Assembly: GCA_032128875.1 (NCBI GenBank)
Contig: JAVLKG010000001.1
Location: 256,001 to 320,000, forward strand
Origin: Candidatus Melainabacteria bacterium 17Bon1m
Lineage (GTDB): Bacteria; Cyanobacteriota; Vampirovibrionia; Obscuribacterales; Obscuribacteraceae
Length of the DNA: 64,000 bases
Direction of reading: 5' to 3'
Position 1 is the first letter of the stretch, and each line of letters starts with the position of its first letter. Of this stretch, positions 11,355 to 16,877 are shown one piece after another. The position numbers and the translations under genes are program-made. The notes under the pieces were generated by a model. The model had not been told where the DNA came from and did not search any database. It worked only from the letters and a program-made list of their open reading frames with translations.

Positions 11355-12222
11355 GGCAAACTTGCTTGACGTACGGCTTTCCGTTATTGAGTGATTTTAC
11401 GATATTGGCTTGCTGATTGCTTTTTTGAGTCCAGCCGAAAAGTTGATACCACTTTTGCAATGCGACATGCCCAACTATACGCTTTTCTTTTGGAAGTTTA
11501 TCGAATTGCATAATCGCGCGAAGTTGATATGTTTCAGCTCTTTTGAAATCATATGTGCTCCGCTTATTAGGATCCGTGAATAAACCGGCCATTTGCTGCA
11601 ACGTGTATGCTGTTGTTTCAATGACACTTTCGTCTAGTCCTCTTGCGTTTTCCAACGCGCGGAGCTGTTCGTCCAAGTCAGCAGTTTGTTTGTTTGCTTC
11701 TTCTGCTGCACCGATCTGATTGTAGAAATTGATGAGGCTAACAAGATATTGCAAACGTTCCCTGGAGCCGATCGGAAGTTTGATGGCGAATTCTAGCCCA
11801 ATGGTTGCTGCGCGCCGCGCTTTGACCTTGTCGTATGGAGCCATCTCGAAAGCATAATTGCTCATGAGCCCTGGGATTATAAGCTCGGGAGCTCGGAACG
11901 TTTTTGCAGACTCGATTGCTCGGGTAATTGTCTTTTCTGCCTGTACAATTTGACCAGTCAGTATGTACACACGAGCTAGATCACCGAGTCTGACTGGGTA
12001 ATCCTCGATCAAAGTGCCATGTTGTTTTTCGTACTCTTGAAGATCCTTTTCTGCCAAGTTGATCTGCAACTTTTGGTCAGCCGTTAGAGCCTTAGGTGAG
12101 TTAACGCTCGGATTTACCGCGGTCCTTGGTTGCTTAGGGGCGTCTTTCGCAAGCGATGTATGTCCCGCTATTAGAAGCCCGACATTTATTGCGCACAACG
12201 CTCGCGCTGTCTTCGCCTTCAT
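11335..12222 (-). CDS. Secreted TPR-like protein ending in CHGCGLG
   Basis: Signal peptide; LARVYILTGQIVQAEKTITRAI; terminal CxxCG motif. Confidence 0.75.
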   Translation of the reverse strand: MKAKTARALCAINVGLLIAGHTSLAKDAPKQPRTAVNPSVNSPKALTADQKLQINLAEKDLQEYEKQHGTLIEDYPVRLGDLARVYILTGQIVQAEKTITRAIESAKTFRAPELIIPGLMSNYAFEMAPYDKVKARRAATIGLEFAIKLPIGSRERLQYLVSLINFYNQIGAAEEANKQTADLDEQLRALENARGLDESVIETTAYTLQQMAGLFTDPNKRSTYDFKRAETYQLRAIMQFDKLPKEKRIVGHVALQKWYQLFGWTQKSNQQANIVKSLNNGKPYVKQVCHGCGLG

Positions 12223-12298
12223 GACTAACCTCGATGTATCGATATAGTTAGTTTGCCTGAAAGCGCAGATTCACGCAAGATGAGGCAAACTATTTGTG

Positions 12299-12733
12299 CT
12301 ATTCCTCTCGTTGTAGTTGACCGTTCACATGTATCTTGCTTCCGTCTGCATCTGTCGTGAAGCATTGGAAGCTGATGGTATCAATGTGATTTTGGCTTGA
12401 TCCGTAGCCCGTCATAATCAGCAAAGGTTTAAATCTGTTTGACGAAAATGAGGCCACAAAAACGTCCGGCGTTGTCTTATTATTTCTGTCTGCATAAGCT
12501 TCGAGGGTCGCTTCACCTATTGAAACTTCATCAGGAAAGCCCACCAGTGCCCCTCGAACTTTTACGCTTCCGTCTTTCTCTTTTGTGAAACTGAGCCTTT
12601 TGATGGTGACAAAATTCGTTTCTTTGCTGGTGAAGTTACCAGTCCACTTCTCTGGATAATTAGCTGCAAGCCCTAAGGACGGAGTTCCCAATGATATTGC
12701 TGCAATTGCAGCAGAAATGAATGCCCCTTTCAT
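12299..12733 (-). CDS. Secreted hypothetical protein
   Basis: GGAGG SD, signal peptide MKGAFISAAIAAISLG. Confidence 0.75.
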   Translation of the reverse strand: MKGAFISAAIAAISLGTPSLGLAANYPEKWTGNFTSKETNFVTIKRLSFTKEKDGSVKVRGALVGFPDEVSIGEATLEAYADRNNKTTPDVFVASFSSNRFKPLLIMTGYGSSQNHIDTISFQCFTTDADGSKIHVNGQLQREE

Positions 12734-12837
12734 ATCCCCTCCAGAGGTTGTCGTCGCCTAATCATACTATTTGGTAAGTATTAAGGGGTATTGCATCCGC
12801 AAATCGAACTTCACTTTGCGAAGGAATTTAAAAAAGA

Positions 12838-13056
12838 CTATCTGTCTTTTGAAAGTGAGATTCTGATTCGCAGGTCTAGAGCACTTGCGGTTCTTACAAG
12901 CATCGGAAGTGAGTGTCCTTCATAGTCAGAATCCTCTAGTCGACTTATCACTGACTGGGTCGTACCTGTCAGGTCTGCAAGTCCTTTCTGACTTAATCCT
13001 GCTTCTTTTCGCGCCTCGTAAATCATCACTGCTATTTCAGAACTGAGGCGCTCATT
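12838..13056 (-). pseudogene. 5'-truncated XRE/HTH_3 regulator (HigA-like antitoxin remnant)
   Basis: NERLSSEIAVMIYEARKEAGLSQKGLADLTGTTQSVISRLEDSDYEGHSLPML; family-like sequence extends upstream of the first usable start codon and then meets a stop. Confidence 0.65.
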
Positions 13057-13143
13057 TGATTTAGTGGTTGTTTAGGTCTAGCAATGAGAGGTGGTCGGCC
13101 AGCCTTTCTGGTTGCCTGCAAACATTCGAGAGAGGTCGTGAAA

Positions 13144-13228
13144 TGGCGGAGATGGCATGGACTCGAACCTGCAACGCTTTCGCGCGCCTGTTTTCAAGAC
13201 AGGCTCCTTTCCAATTCGGATCATCTCC
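13144..13228 (-). tRNA. tRNA-Ser(TGA), divergent, CCA encoded
   Basis: GGAGATG/CATCTCC acceptor, CCTGT-CTTGAAA-ACAGG, long variable arm, GGTTCGAGTCC with bulged T-stem, G73. Confidence 0.88.
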
Positions 13229-13233
13229 GTAAT

Positions 13234-13306
13234 TGCCAACGACTGGAATCGAACCAGTTTCGTGCCGTCTTCAGCGGCTCGTGTTGACCACAATCACCAC
13301 ATTGGC
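13234..13306 (-). tRNA. tRNA-Phe(GAA), divergent, no CCA
   Basis: GCCAATG/CGTTGGC, GCCG-CTGAAGA-CGGC, ACTGG-TTCGATT-CCAGT. Confidence 0.85.
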
Positions 13307-13307
13307 A

Positions 13308-13381
13308 TGGCGCGTCGACCTCGATTCGAACGAGGACCAGCAACTTTGGAGGTTGCGCGGCTACCGTTACCTCATCGACGC
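13308..13381 (-). tRNA. tRNA-Trp(CCA), CCA encoded
   Basis: GCGTCGA/TCGACGC, GCAAC-CTCCAAA-GTTGC, CCTCG-TTCGAAT-CGAGG, G73. Confidence 0.9.
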
Positions 13382-13382
13382 A

Positions 13383-13458
13383 TGGAGCACACGAGCCGAT
13401 TTGCACGGCTGCGTAGCGGGGTTGCAATCCGCCGGCTTGCTGTCTTGCCTACGTGTGC
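13383..13458 (-). tRNA. tRNA-Cys(GCA), divergent, CCA encoded
   Basis: GCACACG/CGTGTGC, GCGGA-TTGCAAC-CCCGC, AGCCG-TGCAAAT-CGGCT, U73. Confidence 0.85.
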
Positions 13459-13459
13459 A

Positions 13460-13535
13460 TGGAGCCGTCAGCAGGAATTGAACCCGCAACCAATCGCTTA
13501 CAAGGCGATTGCTCTACCAATTGAGCTATAACGGC
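13460..13535 (-). tRNA. tRNA-Thr(TGT), CCA encoded
   Basis: GCCGTTA/TGACGGC, GCTC-AATTGGTA-GAGC, ATCGC-CTTGTAA-GCGAT, GCGGG-TTCAATT-CCTGC. Confidence 0.95.
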
Positions 13536-13588
13536 GTGTGTTGAACGTCAGATTGTTGAAACCTCGTGAGTTGGTTAGATAAAACAAT

Positions 13589-13660
13589 TGGAGGCAGTAG
13601 GAATCGAACCTACCTGGAGCTGGTTAAAAGCCAGATACATAGCCAATCTGCCATGCCTCC
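13589..13660 (-). tRNA. tRNA-Lys(TTT), no CCA
   Basis: GGAGGCA/TGCCTCC, CTGG-CTTTTAA-CCAG, GTAGG-TTCGATT-CCTAC. Confidence 0.88.
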
Positions 13661-13683
13661 GCAAAAGTTTCTGAAAAAAAATT

Positions 13684-13778
13684 GGGCGTGTGCAACACGC
13701 CCCCACGCTCTGGAAGAGCCGGCTGGAAGCCAGCGCTCCGGCCGATTTAGAAGCGGGCGAGCCGCCGGCGCTCCCAGG
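13684..13778. repeat. Cluster of REP-like elements (families 2 and 3) inside the tRNA array
   Basis: GGGCGTGTGCAACACGCCCCCAC and GCGAGCCGCCGGCGCTCCCAGG; same units at 32924-33029 and 62592-62671. Confidence 0.8.
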
Positions 13779-13783
13779 AAAAA

Positions 13784-13856
13784 AGCCCCTGCCAGGATTT
13801 GAACCTGGACCCTTCTGGTTCGTAGCCAGATGCTCAATCCGTTGAGCTACAGGGAC
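13784..13856 (-). tRNA. tRNA-Arg(ACG), no CCA
   Basis: GTCCCTG/CAGGGGC, GCTC-AACGGATT-GAGC, TCTGG-CTACGAA-CCAGA, CCAGG-TTCAAAT-CCTGG. Confidence 0.93.
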
Positions 13857-13917
13857 AATGCCGGACCTAAAGGCTCAGCTTTGGTCCGGGTTTCTCGGCG
13901 GCCGCCGTAGAAATGAT

Positions 13918-13988
13918 AGCCCACCATCGGATTCGAACCGATATCTCCGCCGTGGCGCGACGGGGTTCTGCCATTGAACCAGGTAGGC
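13918..13988 (-). tRNA. tRNA-Gly(GCC), divergent anticodon loop, no CCA
   Basis: GCCTACC/GGTGGGC, GTTC-AATGGCA-GAAC, CCGTC-GCGCCAC-GGCGG, ATCGG-TTCGAAT-CCGAT, U73. Confidence 0.85.
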
Positions 13989-13991
13989 GAA

Positions 13992-14062
13992 TTGCCACAG
14001 CAGGAGTCGCACCTACACCACTCGCTTATCAGGCGAGCGCTCTACTGTTGAGCTATGCAGCA
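13992..14062 (-). tRNA. tRNA-Ile(GAT), divergent, no CCA
   Basis: TGCTGCA/TGTGGCA, GCTC-AACAGTA-GAGC, CTCGC-CTGATAA-GCGAG, GTAGG-TGCGACT-CCTGC. Confidence 0.85.
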
Positions 14063-14066
14063 CTAA

Positions 14067-14138
14067 TGCCCGATGAAGGATTTGAACCTTCAACCCTCTC
14101 CTTGTAATGGAGTAGCTCTACCGTTGAGCTAACCGGGC
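14067..14138 (-). tRNA. tRNA-Val(TAC), no CCA
   Basis: GCCCGGT/ATCGGGC, GCTC-AACGGTA-GAGC, CTCC-ATTACAA-GGAG, GAAGG-TTCAAAT-CCTTC. Confidence 0.9.
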
Positions 14139-14141
14139 GAA

Positions 14142-14214
14142 TGGAGACTATCGGAATCGAACCGATGACCTTCTCGTTGCAGGCGAGTTGCTCTGCCGTC
14201 TGAGCTTAGTCCCC
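14142..14214 (-). tRNA. tRNA-Ala(TGC), divergent, no CCA
   Basis: GGGGACT/AGTCTCC with G3:U70 identity pair, CTCG-CCTGCAA-CGAG, ATCGG-TTCGATT-CCGAT. Confidence 0.9.
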
Positions 14215-14223
14215 ATGTTTTCT

Positions 14224-14238
14224 CGATTTTCAGGGTGC
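14224..14238 (-). promoter_or_regulatory. boxA-like antitermination motif
   Basis: GCACCCTGAAAATCG, 9 nt before the first tRNA; resembles the G(A/C)ACCTTGAAAA rrn boxA type. Confidence 0.45.
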
Positions 14239-14520
14239 GATGTTTCCGAAGTGAACAGATGAAAGTGCGAAGTGTTCAAAATGAGTATGGGTGAGTTCAA
14301 AAGTTATGCGACTAAATTTTTTCTGACACCTCCCTGCGCTAGAGCGAGCTAGGACAATGGCACCACTAATGGTGACACTGCAGATTAAGAAGCGAATTTA
14401 TTCACACGACGTTGATCGGTCAGCAAAGCTGCGATTGCGCGCTAACGCAAATCAATCAGCAAATGCTTGATCGAAGAATGTCTAGTTATCGGGATTCCCG
14501 TGAATAGAGAGCCTTAAAGA

Positions 14521-14548
14521 CAAAAATGCCTGGGCTCTTTACCCAGGC
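14521..14548 (-). terminator. Intrinsic terminator (attenuator) between leader ORF and tRNA array
   Basis: GCCTGGG-TAAAGAG-CCCAGGC-ATTTTTG. Confidence 0.85.
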
Positions 14549-14590
14549 TCTGCGGAGTTAGATACCAATCAATCTCATCGCATTACTGGG
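14542..14590 (-). promoter_or_regulatory. Antiterminator hairpin, mutually exclusive with the terminator
   Basis: CCCAG-taa-TGCG-atg-AGAT-tgattggt-ATCT-aactc-CGCA-gagc-CTGGG: three nested helices; 5' arm lies in the last leader codons, 3' arm is the terminator 5' strand. Confidence 0.75.
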
Positions 14591-14691
14591 ATTTTCACGC
14601 GCACGTTTGCCGTGCCGCCGCAAAACACTGGACGTCCGGAGTCGGCGCGCCATGTGCGTTTGGTGGTTGAGCAAATAATTGATTTATTCAT
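14575..14691 (-). CDS. Putative 38-aa attenuator leader peptide
   Basis: AAGGTG SD 6 nt before ATG; MNKSIICSTTKRTWRADSGRPVFCGGTANVRVKIPVMR*; stop codon inside the antiterminator. Confidence 0.75.
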   Translation of the reverse strand: MNKSIICSTTKRTWRADSGRPVFCGGTANVRVKIPVMR

Positions 14692-14759
14692 AGTCTGCAC
14701 CTTAGTGTCCTTTATGATCATTAGTGATCATAAAGTCGGCCCGAAGACCGACTAAATTC

Positions 14760-14788
14760 AACATACCACAACACCCCTGACGCCGCAA
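14760..14788 (-). promoter_or_regulatory. Sigma70-like promoter of the leader/tRNA operon
   Basis: TTGCGG-17 nt-TATGTT with extended -10 TG; predicted start near 14753 at a UUCG-capped hairpin. Confidence 0.6.
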
Positions 14789-14791
14789 GAA

Positions 14792-15925
14792 CTATTTTTG
14801 TTTCGTTCTTTCTAATAATGCGTTGTAGTCATCTTGCCACTCAGGCTTCTGAGTGTTTTGCTGTTTCGCTCGCTTATCTACCGCAATATTGTAGATTTTC
14901 AACGCTTCCACATCATCGCGTTTCAGTTCACAAAAGCGCGCCATGGTAATGAACATTCGCTCGCTCTCGTTTGTGCGTTTCAACAATTCGTTTTTGATTG
15001 CGTTAAACGCATCGTATTTCCTTTGTTTTAAAAGGGCGTAAGCCAGCGCAATTTGAACGTCAGTCAATCCGGCATTTTCGTCCGTTAGTTCTTTGATGTG
15101 TGCACTCGATTTTTGCGCATAATCTTCCGCCAGCGAATAGTGCTTAGAACTGTTTGCAATGAGAGCCAATCTGTAGAGCCCAAGCGCAGCACGCACATCA
15201 CCTACGGGCATTTGTTGTGCTTCGCTCGCCAGCTTGTCTAGCGACTTTCCGAATTCTTCTAATGTGTCAACGCTTACATTGGAAGATGGATCTGCTTCGG
15301 GATTTTCTTCGTTAAGAGAGGTGAGCGGATCGCCATACTTCAGTTGCTCGCCATCCGCGATTGACTTGAATTCATCAAGTTGTTTCAGCGCCGCATCGAC
15401 GCCGTCACAGTGTTTCTTGAGCTGCGCAGTGTAATCTTTTGGCACCGTGTTGTTTATAAGCGATTCAATAATCGCTTTGGTATCAGTACTCGTTCCACCT
15501 GCGGTGGCATTTTGATTCTCAATTTCCTTCTCGAAAAATTGCTTGAGCATTTGCGGGCTTCTCGCGTACAATTCCGCGGAGTTTTTCGCGTAGTTCGGAT
15601 CCATAATCAATTCGAGTTGCATTCTGATCAACATCTCTCGAATGATTCGCGCACTCTCATCCGGATGTCCCGCCTTCAACTGCGCAAGAGCATTTTGAGC
15701 TTGCATGGCAGGTGTTGCCGGCACAGATAATGTTGGTCCAGGCGTCGTTTGTTCCGGTGTCGTTTGTTCAGGTGTCGCCGGCTCAGCCGCTGTCGCAATC
15801 GATAAAGCAAACGAGCAATAGAGCAATCCGCAAATCAGAGCCGTCAGTGTGCGTTGTTTGAACCGCATGAATTCTCTCCCGAATGCACAGGGCATCAGGT
15901 AAGAATATAACAAACTCTTCGACAA
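14792..15925 (-). CDS. Secreted helical/TPR-like hypothetical protein
   Basis: Probable start MRFKQRTL (GGAG SD), signal peptide, PEQTT tandem repeat, TPR-like C-terminus. Confidence 0.75.
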   Translation of the reverse strand: MSKSLLYSYLMPCAFGREFMRFKQRTLTALICGLLYCSFALSIATAAEPATPEQTTPEQTTPGPTLSVPATPAMQAQNALAQLKAGHPDESARIIREMLIRMQLELIMDPNYAKNSAELYARSPQMLKQFFEKEIENQNATAGGTSTDTKAIIESLINNTVPKDYTAQLKKHCDGVDAALKQLDEFKSIADGEQLKYGDPLTSLNEENPEADPSSNVSVDTLEEFGKSLDKLASEAQQMPVGDVRAALGLYRLALIANSSKHYSLAEDYAQKSSAHIKELTDENAGLTDVQIALAYALLKQRKYDAFNAIKNELLKRTNESERMFITMARFCELKRDDVEALKIYNIAVDKRAKQQNTQKPEWQDDYNALLERTKQK

Positions 15926-15937
15926 TGCGATTTTGAA

Positions 15938-16288
15938 TTAGCTCTCGTCGTCAATTGCCGGAGCGAGATCTCGAATCCTGCGTGTTGCAGACTCTCTACG
16001 TTGTGAGAGTTCGGATGGTGTCGAATTCAAAAACTGGAGTATAGAGTCCCAGATCCCGGAGACCGCGTTAGAAATTATGGATATTAGGTTCGCAAACGAA
16101 GGAACTGAATCTTTCCAATTTCGCTCGAGCCAGTTTGAATCAAGTTTTGGCATGTGCACAGTTTCTGGGAAATTCACAACTTCAAAGTCGGTGAATTCAC
16201 GACTTCCACACGTCCGGCAAATCTTGTTTTCGGCCAGTGTTCTGAACTGACACTTATTGCAAATTTTTATCTTCATTTTGGTAACCAC
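15938..16288 (-). CDS. Hypothetical protein with N-terminal zinc ribbon
   Basis: CNKC...CRTCGS. Confidence 0.6.
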   Translation of the reverse strand: MVTKMKIKICNKCQFRTLAENKICRTCGSREFTDFEVVNFPETVHMPKLDSNWLERNWKDSVPSFANLISIISNAVSGIWDSILQFLNSTPSELSQRRESATRRIRDLAPAIDDES

Positions 16289-16409
16289 GTCACACTTTCA
16301 AGTTTGACTGCTGTGACCGCAACTTTGTTCCATGTTTATCTGCCCGTCACTTAAAGGGAACAAAATGCCCTGATCGCTTGTCTCCCAAGCGAAATTAAGG
16401 ATTAGTGCT

Positions 16410-16877
16410 ATGAGAAAGCAAAAACAAAGCGTTTTGTTTTTCAGTTGTCTATTGGTCGGGTTAACGTTTGCAATGGGTCAGCCATCATTTGCGGCGCGCC
16501 AAGACGACGGTGAAGACAAGCCGAGCAAGCTTTCGAGAATTTTTAGAGGTGTTGCATCCTTTTATGGAAAAAAGTTTCACGGAAAGAAGACCGCTTCAGG
16601 AAAGCCGTTTGACATGAATGCATTCACGTGCGCGCACCCGAGTTTGCCTTTCGGAACACCGGTGTTAGTGCAAAACGAGAGTAACGGTGCGCAGTGCCAA
16701 GTCGTTGTAACGGATAGGGGACCCTATGCACATAACCGATGCATCGATTTATCGAAAGCTGCTGCCAGAAGACTTGGTATCACCGGAGTAGCGAAGGTGG
16801 TCTGCAAGACTGGGCGCTTTATCAAGAATGGGCTCGACAGCGATGGACCGCCGAGACAAACGGCTTCCAGCAGATAG
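16410..16877 (+). CDS. rlpA: RlpA-family DPBB lytic transglycosylase-like protein
   Basis: GVASFYG, HGKKTASG, AHPSLPFGT, VTDRGPY, IDLSKAAA. Confidence 0.9.
   Translation: MRKQKQSVLFFSCLLVGLTFAMGQPSFAARQDDGEDKPSKLSRIFRGVASFYGKKFHGKKTASGKPFDMNAFTCAHPSLPFGTPVLVQNESNGAQCQVVVTDRGPYAHNRCIDLSKAAARRLGITGVAKVVCKTGRFIKNGLDSDGPPRQTASSR

Follow-up and report, generated by a model that had tools for sequence, protein, structure and literature searches.

Which signal could decide when a set of duplicate transfer RNA (tRNA) genes is transcribed, if every member repeats a tRNA that the cell already encodes elsewhere? The question is raised by a locus of Candidatus Melainabacteria bacterium 17Bon1m, a non-photosynthetic member of the cyanobacterial phylum (Melainabacteria; Obscuribacterales; Obscuribacteraceae), whose genome (G000) comprises 7.55 Mb in 35 contigs. 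The window analysed here, the whole stretch of 64,000 nucleotides (G000:C1:256001–320000), contains 11 tRNA genes (array 1) within 1.07 kb (window 14215–13147), preceded by a 38-codon open reading frame (ORF) at 14575–14691, leader 1, that encodes MNKSIICSTTKRTWRADSGRPVFCGGTANVRVKIPVMR; these and all other window features described below lie on the minus strand. All 11 array genes duplicate isoacceptors that are present as separate single copies elsewhere in the genome, with 56–77% identity to those housekeeping copies, and the regulated unit consists of tRNA genes only, with neither a biosynthetic nor a synthetase gene. A first-pass annotation had suggested that the leader peptide mirrors the array and senses its tRNAs, a ribosome stalled in the leader freeing an antiterminator. 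This idea is supported by the fold of the leader region, by covariation of its base pairs, by a second leader in the same genome, and by the co-variation of leaders and arrays across genera. We therefore read the ORF, with a probability of about 0.7, as the putative leader of a ribosome-dependent, trp-type attenuator that gates the supernumerary array and responds to the array's own tRNAs.

Leader 1 extends from an ATG at 14691–14689 to a TGA stop at 14577–14575, and both the ORF and its translation are exactly as the annotation had them. The peptide is drawn largely from the 11 amino acids of the array (A, V, I, G, R, K, T, C, W, F, and S), which make up 31 of 38 residues (31 of 37 without the initiator) and, as read from the translation, 24 of the 26 in codons 3–28, and E, H, L, Q, and Y are missing from peptide and array alike. 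Array anticodons read 26 of the 37 non-initiator codons under strict wobble, and 30 of 37 if U34 is allowed to read four-way. Our counts agree with the earlier ones on all these points, and the comparison with genome codon usage and random ORFs that the annotation had called for shows the match to be moderately unusual (p about 1e-3 to 6e-5). Relative to a genome background of 0.589, the 31 in-set residues of 37 correspond to a binomial p of 0.0011; among 41,297 random ORFs of 30–50 residues from the same genome, 2.0% reach the in-set fraction of the leader, and only 0.23% combine this with the presence of all 11 amino acids. The codon match (26/37) yields p = 5.9e-5 against a usage-weighted background of 0.377, and mostly reflects amino-acid composition; given the amino acids, the synonymous choice is 26 of 31 where 20.4 would be expected (p = 0.012). 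At this single locus, the leader–array match is suggestive, not decisive. The leftover Asn, Asp, Pro, and Met codons, for which the annotation had pointed to relatives, can be accounted for because homologous arrays there carry Met, Asn, Asp, and Pro tRNAs. Pro35 and Met37 also sit in an RNA-constrained segment, the 5′ strand of the antiterminator.

This antiterminator is part of a series of elements that together have the layout of an attenuator. Farthest upstream is a promoter-like extended −10 element (TGgTATGTT, 14760–14768) that is kept in 15 of 15 aligned loci; a strict sigma-70 consensus scan of 12800–15000 returned no site, and a promoter near 14760 is named because of conservation only. 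It is followed by a 5′ stem-loop of the predicted leader transcript (AGTCGGTCTTCGGGCCGACT, 14734–14753), visible in the alignment and paired in the fold, and by a Shine–Dalgarno-like TAAGGTG (14698–14704) located 6 nt upstream of the ATG, for which relatives have GGAG or AAGG at equal distance. The 5′ strand of the antiterminator (CCCAG, TGCG, and GAG; 14574–14590) spans codons 35–38 and the stop codon, and its 3′ strand (CTC, CGCA, and CTGGG; 14542–14557) overlaps the 5′ arm of an intrinsic terminator found by terminator scan (GCCTGGGTAAAGAGCCCAGGC followed by a T-run, 14516–14548; 8 pairs, 6 of them G-C). Folding without the 3′ arm of the terminator pairs CCCAG..TGCG..GAG with CTC.CGCA..CTGGG. 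Across 16 aligned loci from five genera, 92.8% of the antiterminator cells are paired, compared with 28–48% when the partners are slid, and three pairs are altered on both sides. These changes include a compensatory TGCG/CGCA to TGTG/CACA replacement in two loci, with further paired changes in two other genomes (G018 and G089). Among 500 shuffles, 15 equal the observed pairing and 11 the covariation score. As for the terminator, 100% of the cells are paired in the 16 loci, and a covariation signal is lacking because the stem is almost invariant. All leaders read have their stop codon inside the antiterminator 5′ strand, a predicted layout that is the geometry of trp-type attenuation. The terminator is separated from the first tRNA by about 300 nt. 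An Rfam search at E ≤ 1 of the window between 12000 and 16000 gave tRNAs and sub-threshold noise only, with no T-box, no known leader, and no cis-regulatory family.

DNA of the leader region was matched in 15 of 61 genomes of relatives, a count that comprises the source genome, 11 of the 12 other genomes of the genus, and three other genera. The tRNA array lies downstream of the leader at every locus found and the genes upstream of the leader vary between loci; the leader ORF is intact and has a Shine–Dalgarno site in 15 of 15 loci, and the indels in its aligned sequences have lengths divisible by three. Searches with the terminator pattern (up to 3 mismatches) in 104 genomes of the family led to 22 loci being screened, seven with arrays and 15 without, and the latter are taken as chance hits. 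A degenerate antiterminator–terminator pattern, applied to the GTDB species genomes, identified 37 loci, 19 with arrays downstream and 18 with 0–2 tRNAs, which are likewise taken as chance hits. By record title, 17 of the 19 array loci come from Obscuribacter*, Melainabacteria, or 'Cyanobacteria bacterium', one from a 'bacterium', and one from a member of the Chloroflexota. The Chloroflexota-titled metagenome-assembled genome (MAG; locus L133) and a Melainabacteria MAG (L128) have a near-identical 24-tRNA array and the same leader with all 20 amino acids, an identity across phylum labels that reflects either a binning error or a recent transfer.

A second spare array in the source genome (G000:C4:286272–286804) carries Asp, His, Pro(UGG), Tyr, Leu(UAG), and Gln tRNAs; its Pro(UGG) gene has an odd T-loop and scores 45.6 bits with Rfam. 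The locus (C4:285955–286804; L021 and L022) has a promoter TTGACA-N17-TATAGA, a 5′ hairpin, and a 43-codon leader ORF, (V)FRTLLQQQDYRKQPQGLHLVLEANLGVVHDHEYLYLQHRLFS, which is kept in 9 of the 12 genomes of the genus. Residues D, H, Y, L, and Q account for 24 of 42 positions in leader 2, where the background is 0.24 (p = 4e-6), a fraction reached by 0.02% of random ORFs. When the two leaders are tabulated against the two array sets, Fisher p is 5e-8, or 7.7e-7 with Pro counted in set 2; the two leaders of this genome are complementary in composition.

It is the other loci, rather than the statistics of a single one, that give decisive support for the predicted leader–array match. Homologous leaders with different arrays exist in other genera, and we compared 12 leader–array pairs from about six genera of the Obscuribacterales. 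Four genomes from four genera in which both leader types occur give Fisher p values of 7.7e-7, 5.4e-6, 5.2e-4, and 7.7e-5. All 12 leaders cover every amino acid of their own array (the chance of full coverage per pair is 0.0035–0.41, and 0.033 for leader 1 of the source genome), and a cognate codon is found in the own leader for 125 of 138 array anticodons, the misses being mostly C34 isoacceptors and Val(UAC). Individual residues follow array membership. Trp occurs once in each of the six leaders with tRNA-Trp in the array and is absent from the other six; three genera have the tRNA-Tyr gene in the type-2 array and two have it in type 1, and in each case the leader of that array holds the Tyr codons; Asn and Glu counts follow the array, and Leu is enriched where tRNA-Leu is present. 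The correspondence extends to isoacceptors. All 6 leaders that accompany Ile(UAU) contain the ATA codon, and none of the 6 others does; AGR codons occur in every one of the 6 type-1 leaders that go with Arg(UCU) in the array, and leader 1 of the source genome has none. In one relative, a single array of 24 tRNA genes serves 19 amino acids, and all 20 are present in the leader of 43 residues. Leaders from different genera have little of their residue order in common yet keep array coverage; this retention of composition without sequence argues against both a specific arrest motif and conservation as a small protein.

Between the terminator and the array, 7 nt upstream of the first tRNA, a motif-family search located the boxA-like motif GCACCCTGAAAATCGAG (14222–14238). 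The motif family is present in 90 of the 104 genomes of the family, far above a reversed-pattern control, with sites outside the window in the source genome at C1:953813, C16:2138, and C11:193434. Copies in the source genome lie 30 nt before the transfer-messenger RNA (tmRNA) gene and about 110 nt before the 23S ribosomal RNA (rRNA) gene, past the spacer tRNA-Ala, and a variant is located 83–91 nt before the 16S rRNA gene in all three relatives examined. The motif is thus found both in the rRNA operon leader (3 of 3 relatives) and in the 16S–23S spacer (source genome), as expected for boxA. Cyanobacterial 'Box A' antiterminators, and their positions in rRNA operons, are described in portions of two papers (PMC3088681, PMC12967839), and because the motif sits where these elements lie, it is probably an element of the boxA type, which would bind NusB and NusE and, through Nus-type antitermination, protect readthrough transcripts from Rho.

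Taken together, these elements suggest the following sequence of events. Transcription would start at the extended −10 promoter near 14760 and give a transcript in which the 5′ hairpin and the Shine–Dalgarno site precede the 38-codon leader. Codons 35–38 and the stop would form the 5′ strand of the antiterminator, and the 5′ arm of the terminator its 3′ strand, so that an undelayed ribosome would cover the 5′ strand, allow the terminator to form, and cause the transcript to end near 14520. A ribosome waiting for a usable decoder anywhere in codons 2 to about 29 would instead leave the 5′ strand free; the antiterminator would then form first, and polymerase would read through, pass the boxA-like element, probably becoming resistant to Rho, and transcribe the 11 tRNA genes. 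Because the leader has at least one codon for each array tRNA, shortage of any one of them should raise the whole spare set, and we propose a circuit in which decoding capacity is controlled by feedback. That the leader is translated, that transcripts terminate or read through, what the boxA-like element does, and what triggers the switch in nature are inferred here from sequence; the trigger may be a toxin that cleaves tRNAs, an attack by phage, or another form of translational stress.

Several observations weigh against this interpretation. The preference among synonymous codons in leader 1 is weak (p = 0.012), and with single codons per tRNA the stall signal is weaker than in classical leaders, which have codon runs. 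GC-rich conserved stretches of the leader, if constrained at the RNA level, could by themselves bias the peptide toward R, G, A, C, and W. Long arrays have sets that span most amino acids, so that their in-set fractions fall short of significance (p = 0.08–0.5), and the per-pair p values are non-independent since the genomes are related. There are also leaders with residues that their arrays do not explain: G005 and G012 have no Ala and Val tRNAs and the leader still has Ala and Val; G009 shows 6 tRNA genes only and its leader retains T, C, W, F, and S (19 of 35 residues in set, p = 0.07); the leader of G069 has Phe and Leu, for which no tRNA was found in its array; leaders of genus g48 contain His and the arrays are without tRNA-His; and some leaders from the genus of the source genome have AGR codons with arrays that show no Arg(UCU). 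Runs X4–X6, labelled as RNA sequencing (RNA-Seq) and made from the sample that probably yielded the source genome, hold window 11500–16500 on 8–19-kb contigs of even depth and so probably contain DNA. Finally, the boxA-like motif may act not in antitermination but as a promoter element of stable RNA genes, in which case the array would have a start of its own. A further run (X17) contains only tRNA-sized pieces of the locus, at 90–95% identity.

The alternative that survives best, which we nevertheless regard as unlikely, is a general sensor of translation speed without tRNA specificity, opening whenever ribosomes slow down or fail to load (antibiotics, general stress), with the composition match as a by-product of shared ancestry. 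The geometry would permit this, as the antiterminator should be favoured both by a stall at any point ahead of about codon 30 and by the absence of a ribosome, and each amino acid occurs only 1–5 times in the leader. Such a sensor would resemble the Anabaena tRNA operon, which translation inhibitors induce; among long tRNA arrays, experiments exist for this one only, and they show a response to translational stress of a general kind (PMC8421152). A general sensor does not, however, explain why residues follow array membership where arrays have been split or rearranged, or why two leaders in one genome should have complementary compositions.

The distance of about 300 nt between terminator and first tRNA, and the strength and invariance of the terminator, could also be understood if the ORF is part of an independent small gene or small RNA that ends at its own terminator and merely travels with the array, the array itself starting at the motif near 14230; the spacing of 30 nt between the motif copy and tmRNA would suit a promoter. 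We consider this improbable. The peptide is not conserved in sequence across genera and its composition tracks the array, the leader has no Pfam match, the stop codon is always within the antiterminator strand, and further copies of the motif, in the 16S leader and the 23S spacer, occupy places typical of boxA elements.

Slightly less probable again is a sensor of amino-acid starvation, where the leader would read the levels of charged tRNA and the array would be induced when amino acids become limiting. Missing and uncharged tRNAs are indistinguishable to an attenuator of this kind, as for the trp and his leaders, but starvation would not be relieved by extra tRNA, the regulated unit lacks any biosynthetic or synthetase gene, and the codons follow the isoacceptors Ile(UAU) and Arg(UCU) rather than amino acids alone. 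That a spurious ORF resembles the array by chance is highly improbable: 2.0% of the genome's random small ORFs reach the same share of the 11 amino acids, but a second locus, other genera, and the isoacceptors all repeat the match, and the ORF is conserved with its Shine–Dalgarno site and in-frame indels.

The second array type appears to have a different read-out. No intrinsic terminator is present in the C4-type array. A second ORF (ORF2; L022:1771–2000, and at the same place in L023–L030) instead starts at an invariant CGATCATG within leader 2, in another frame and behind AGGAG. Within the genus, ORF2 accumulates third-position substitutions; it is Ala/Phe-rich and Leu-poor, and its reading frame is open into tRNA-Asp, the first tRNA of the C4-type array. 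The frame is likewise open into the first tRNA gene in four of four loci outside the genus, the frame in G018 being unlike the others. Pfam searches returned no family for leader 1 or leader 2, and one sub-threshold match (E = 0.42) for ORF2. The consensus fold pairs the start of the leader ORF (ORF1) with the Shine–Dalgarno site and start codon of ORF2. Judging by this model, a ribosome stalled in the leader may unmask ORF2 in the manner of erm leaders, and translation of ORF2 may shield the transcript as far as the tRNAs, perhaps from Rho.

Combining the two array types, we lean toward a broader picture, which we hold with little more than even confidence. The Obscuribacterales would have a family of self-referential 'roster' leaders that list the amino acids, and some isoacceptors, of the arrays that they precede; the roster would have been split together with an ancestral array of about 24 genes, and two read-outs would have evolved, one a trp-style terminator/antiterminator with the boxA-like element, the other an erm-style unmasking of ORF2, with ORF2 translated into the first tRNA and possibly blocking Rho. 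The function would be tRNA homeostasis or a backup against tRNases.

Among known systems, the closest parallel to the predicted attenuator is provided by the leaders of amino-acid operons, i.e., trpL, hisL, and the multivalent thr and ilv leaders. Array 1 shares with them a short upstream ORF with a ribosome-binding site on the same strand, an intervening intrinsic terminator, and an antiterminator that shares sequence with both the terminator and the end of the ORF. The two RNA structures are mutually exclusive, the position of a ribosome would decide between them (translation being predicted here), and the regulatory codons match, statistically and with exceptions, what the operon supplies. 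Classical attenuators control genes for enzymes of amino-acid biosynthesis or transport, whereas here the regulated unit consists of tRNA genes only, and the locus is therefore a variant rather than a classical member. Further differences are that the leader lists 11 different amino acids, and as many as 20 in one relative, with 1–5 codons for most of them in place of a run of one or a few, that no 1:2 'pause' hairpin is established, and that a boxA-like element lies past the terminator.

Resistance genes of the erm and cat types are controlled by translational attenuation through stalled leader peptides. As in these systems, a ribosome stalled in the leader is predicted to remodel the downstream RNA, and the C4-type fold pairs the start of ORF1 with that of ORF2; unlike in erm and cat, the stall would result from missing tRNAs instead of a drug, and the output would be transcription of tRNAs rather than translation of a resistance protein. 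T-box riboswitches also sense tRNA status in cis and act by antitermination, as proposed here, but they bind uncharged tRNA directly and have no leader ORF, and the T-box model is unmatched at E ≤ 1 between 12000 and 16000 of the window. Similarly to boxA-dependent antitermination in rRNA operons, a short conserved motif precedes long untranslated RNA genes, with the difference that the motif in array 1 is downstream of a conditional terminator and would be carried by readthrough transcripts only. Elements of the boxA type also precede CRISPR arrays.

With respect to the tRNA genes themselves, the relevant comparison is the L-array (trn operon) of Anabaena sp. PCC 7120, also a supernumerary set in the cyanobacterial phylum that duplicates housekeeping tRNAs (parts of PMC8421152 and PMC10272220). 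According to the same sources, the L-array is silent and becomes induced when translation is impaired, under control of the repressor TrcR that acts on direct repeats in the promoter. Unlike the L-array, array 1 is read here as controlled by cis-acting attenuation, with apparent specificity for particular tRNAs. A tRNA array unit has been defined, in the part of PMC4758250 concerned with it, as at least 20 tRNA genes at a density of at least 2 per kb. Array 1 has this density but not the gene number (11 in 1.07 kb), and its supernumerary genes duplicate housekeeping isoacceptors as in such units; the homologous arrays of relatives have 23–24 genes. The strings 'leader', 'attenuat', and 'terminator' are absent from the main text of PMC8421152 and PMC4758250, and a literature search, with supplements outside its scope, gave no paper on control of tRNA arrays by leader peptides or attenuation, in Melainabacteria or elsewhere. 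Thus, the logic of attenuation is known for amino-acid synthesis genes and was not found in print for tRNA genes.

Among the accessory tRNA arrays of bacteria and phages, the one case studied uses a protein repressor. Direct reading of decoding capacity by an attenuator in cis would, if correct, constitute a new regulatory class for stable-RNA genes, with feedback on tRNA supply, and it would predict that loss of one tRNA opens only the array whose leader lists that tRNA. It would also support the view that spare arrays are inducible backups against stresses that deplete tRNAs, such as anticodon nucleases or phage attack. The leaders in addition offer a simple annotation of which tRNAs in an array are meant to be functional.

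The genes of array 1 are arranged in two halves. The first half (13784–14215), assigned by ARAGORN, Rfam, and homology to housekeeping tRNAs, comprises tRNA-Ala(UGC) (14215–14141), tRNA-Val(UAC) (14138–14067), tRNA-Ile(GAU) (14062–13992), tRNA-Gly(GCC) (13988–13918), and tRNA-Arg(ACG) (13856–13784). The second half (13147–13660), assigned by ARAGORN and Rfam, contains tRNA-Lys(UUU) (13660–13589), tRNA-Thr(UGU) (13535–13460), tRNA-Cys(GCA) (13458–13383), tRNA-Trp(CCA) (13381–13308), tRNA-Phe(GAA) (13307–13233), and tRNA-Ser(UGA) (13228–13147). The Cys and Trp genes were called by ARAGORN only and are unmatched by the Rfam tRNA model, and the Ser gene was identified by Rfam only (36.1 bits) or by ARAGORN with a lowered threshold. 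ARAGORN assigns the first gene as Cys(GCA), in a register that is off by one base. We read this gene as Ala(UGC) with an unusual C33, because it has G3:U70 and the anticodon loop CCTGCAA, and because tRNA-Ala(TGC) is the top housekeeping match (identity 0.77).

The two halves are separated by a gap (13661–13783) of roughly 30-nt units of a dispersed palindromic repeat, resembling repetitive extragenic palindromic (REP) elements, with 126 blastn matches across the genome. One unit resembles a terminator, with a hairpin GGGCGTGTTGCACACGCCC and T8 (13702–13684). The gap of the C4 array holds a hairpin of the same type, and contigs from other runs end at the gap in array 1. A weak Gly(TCC) call in this gap, obtained by ARAGORN at a lowered threshold only, was rejected since it has no Rfam support and the stretch consists of dispersed repeats; it would have accounted for the GGA codon of leader 1.

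A third tRNA cluster in the source genome (C3:1007950–1010321), for which no matching leader was found, has Asp, Gly, Cys, Tyr, and Gln genes, with Ser and Met on the opposite strand and phage-like small ORFs around it. Irregular tRNA genes recur in the spare arrays (window 14141–14215; L035:3019–3088; L113:2240–2325 and 2806–2869; L104:1474–1541; L022:2150–2221). Their irregularities include the C33 of the Ala gene, 8-nt anticodon loops, A34 anticodons (ACA and ATT) at one homologous position, and the T-loop GGCAGCA of Pro(UGG), and such genes may be decoys, pseudogenes, or toxin-resistant variants.

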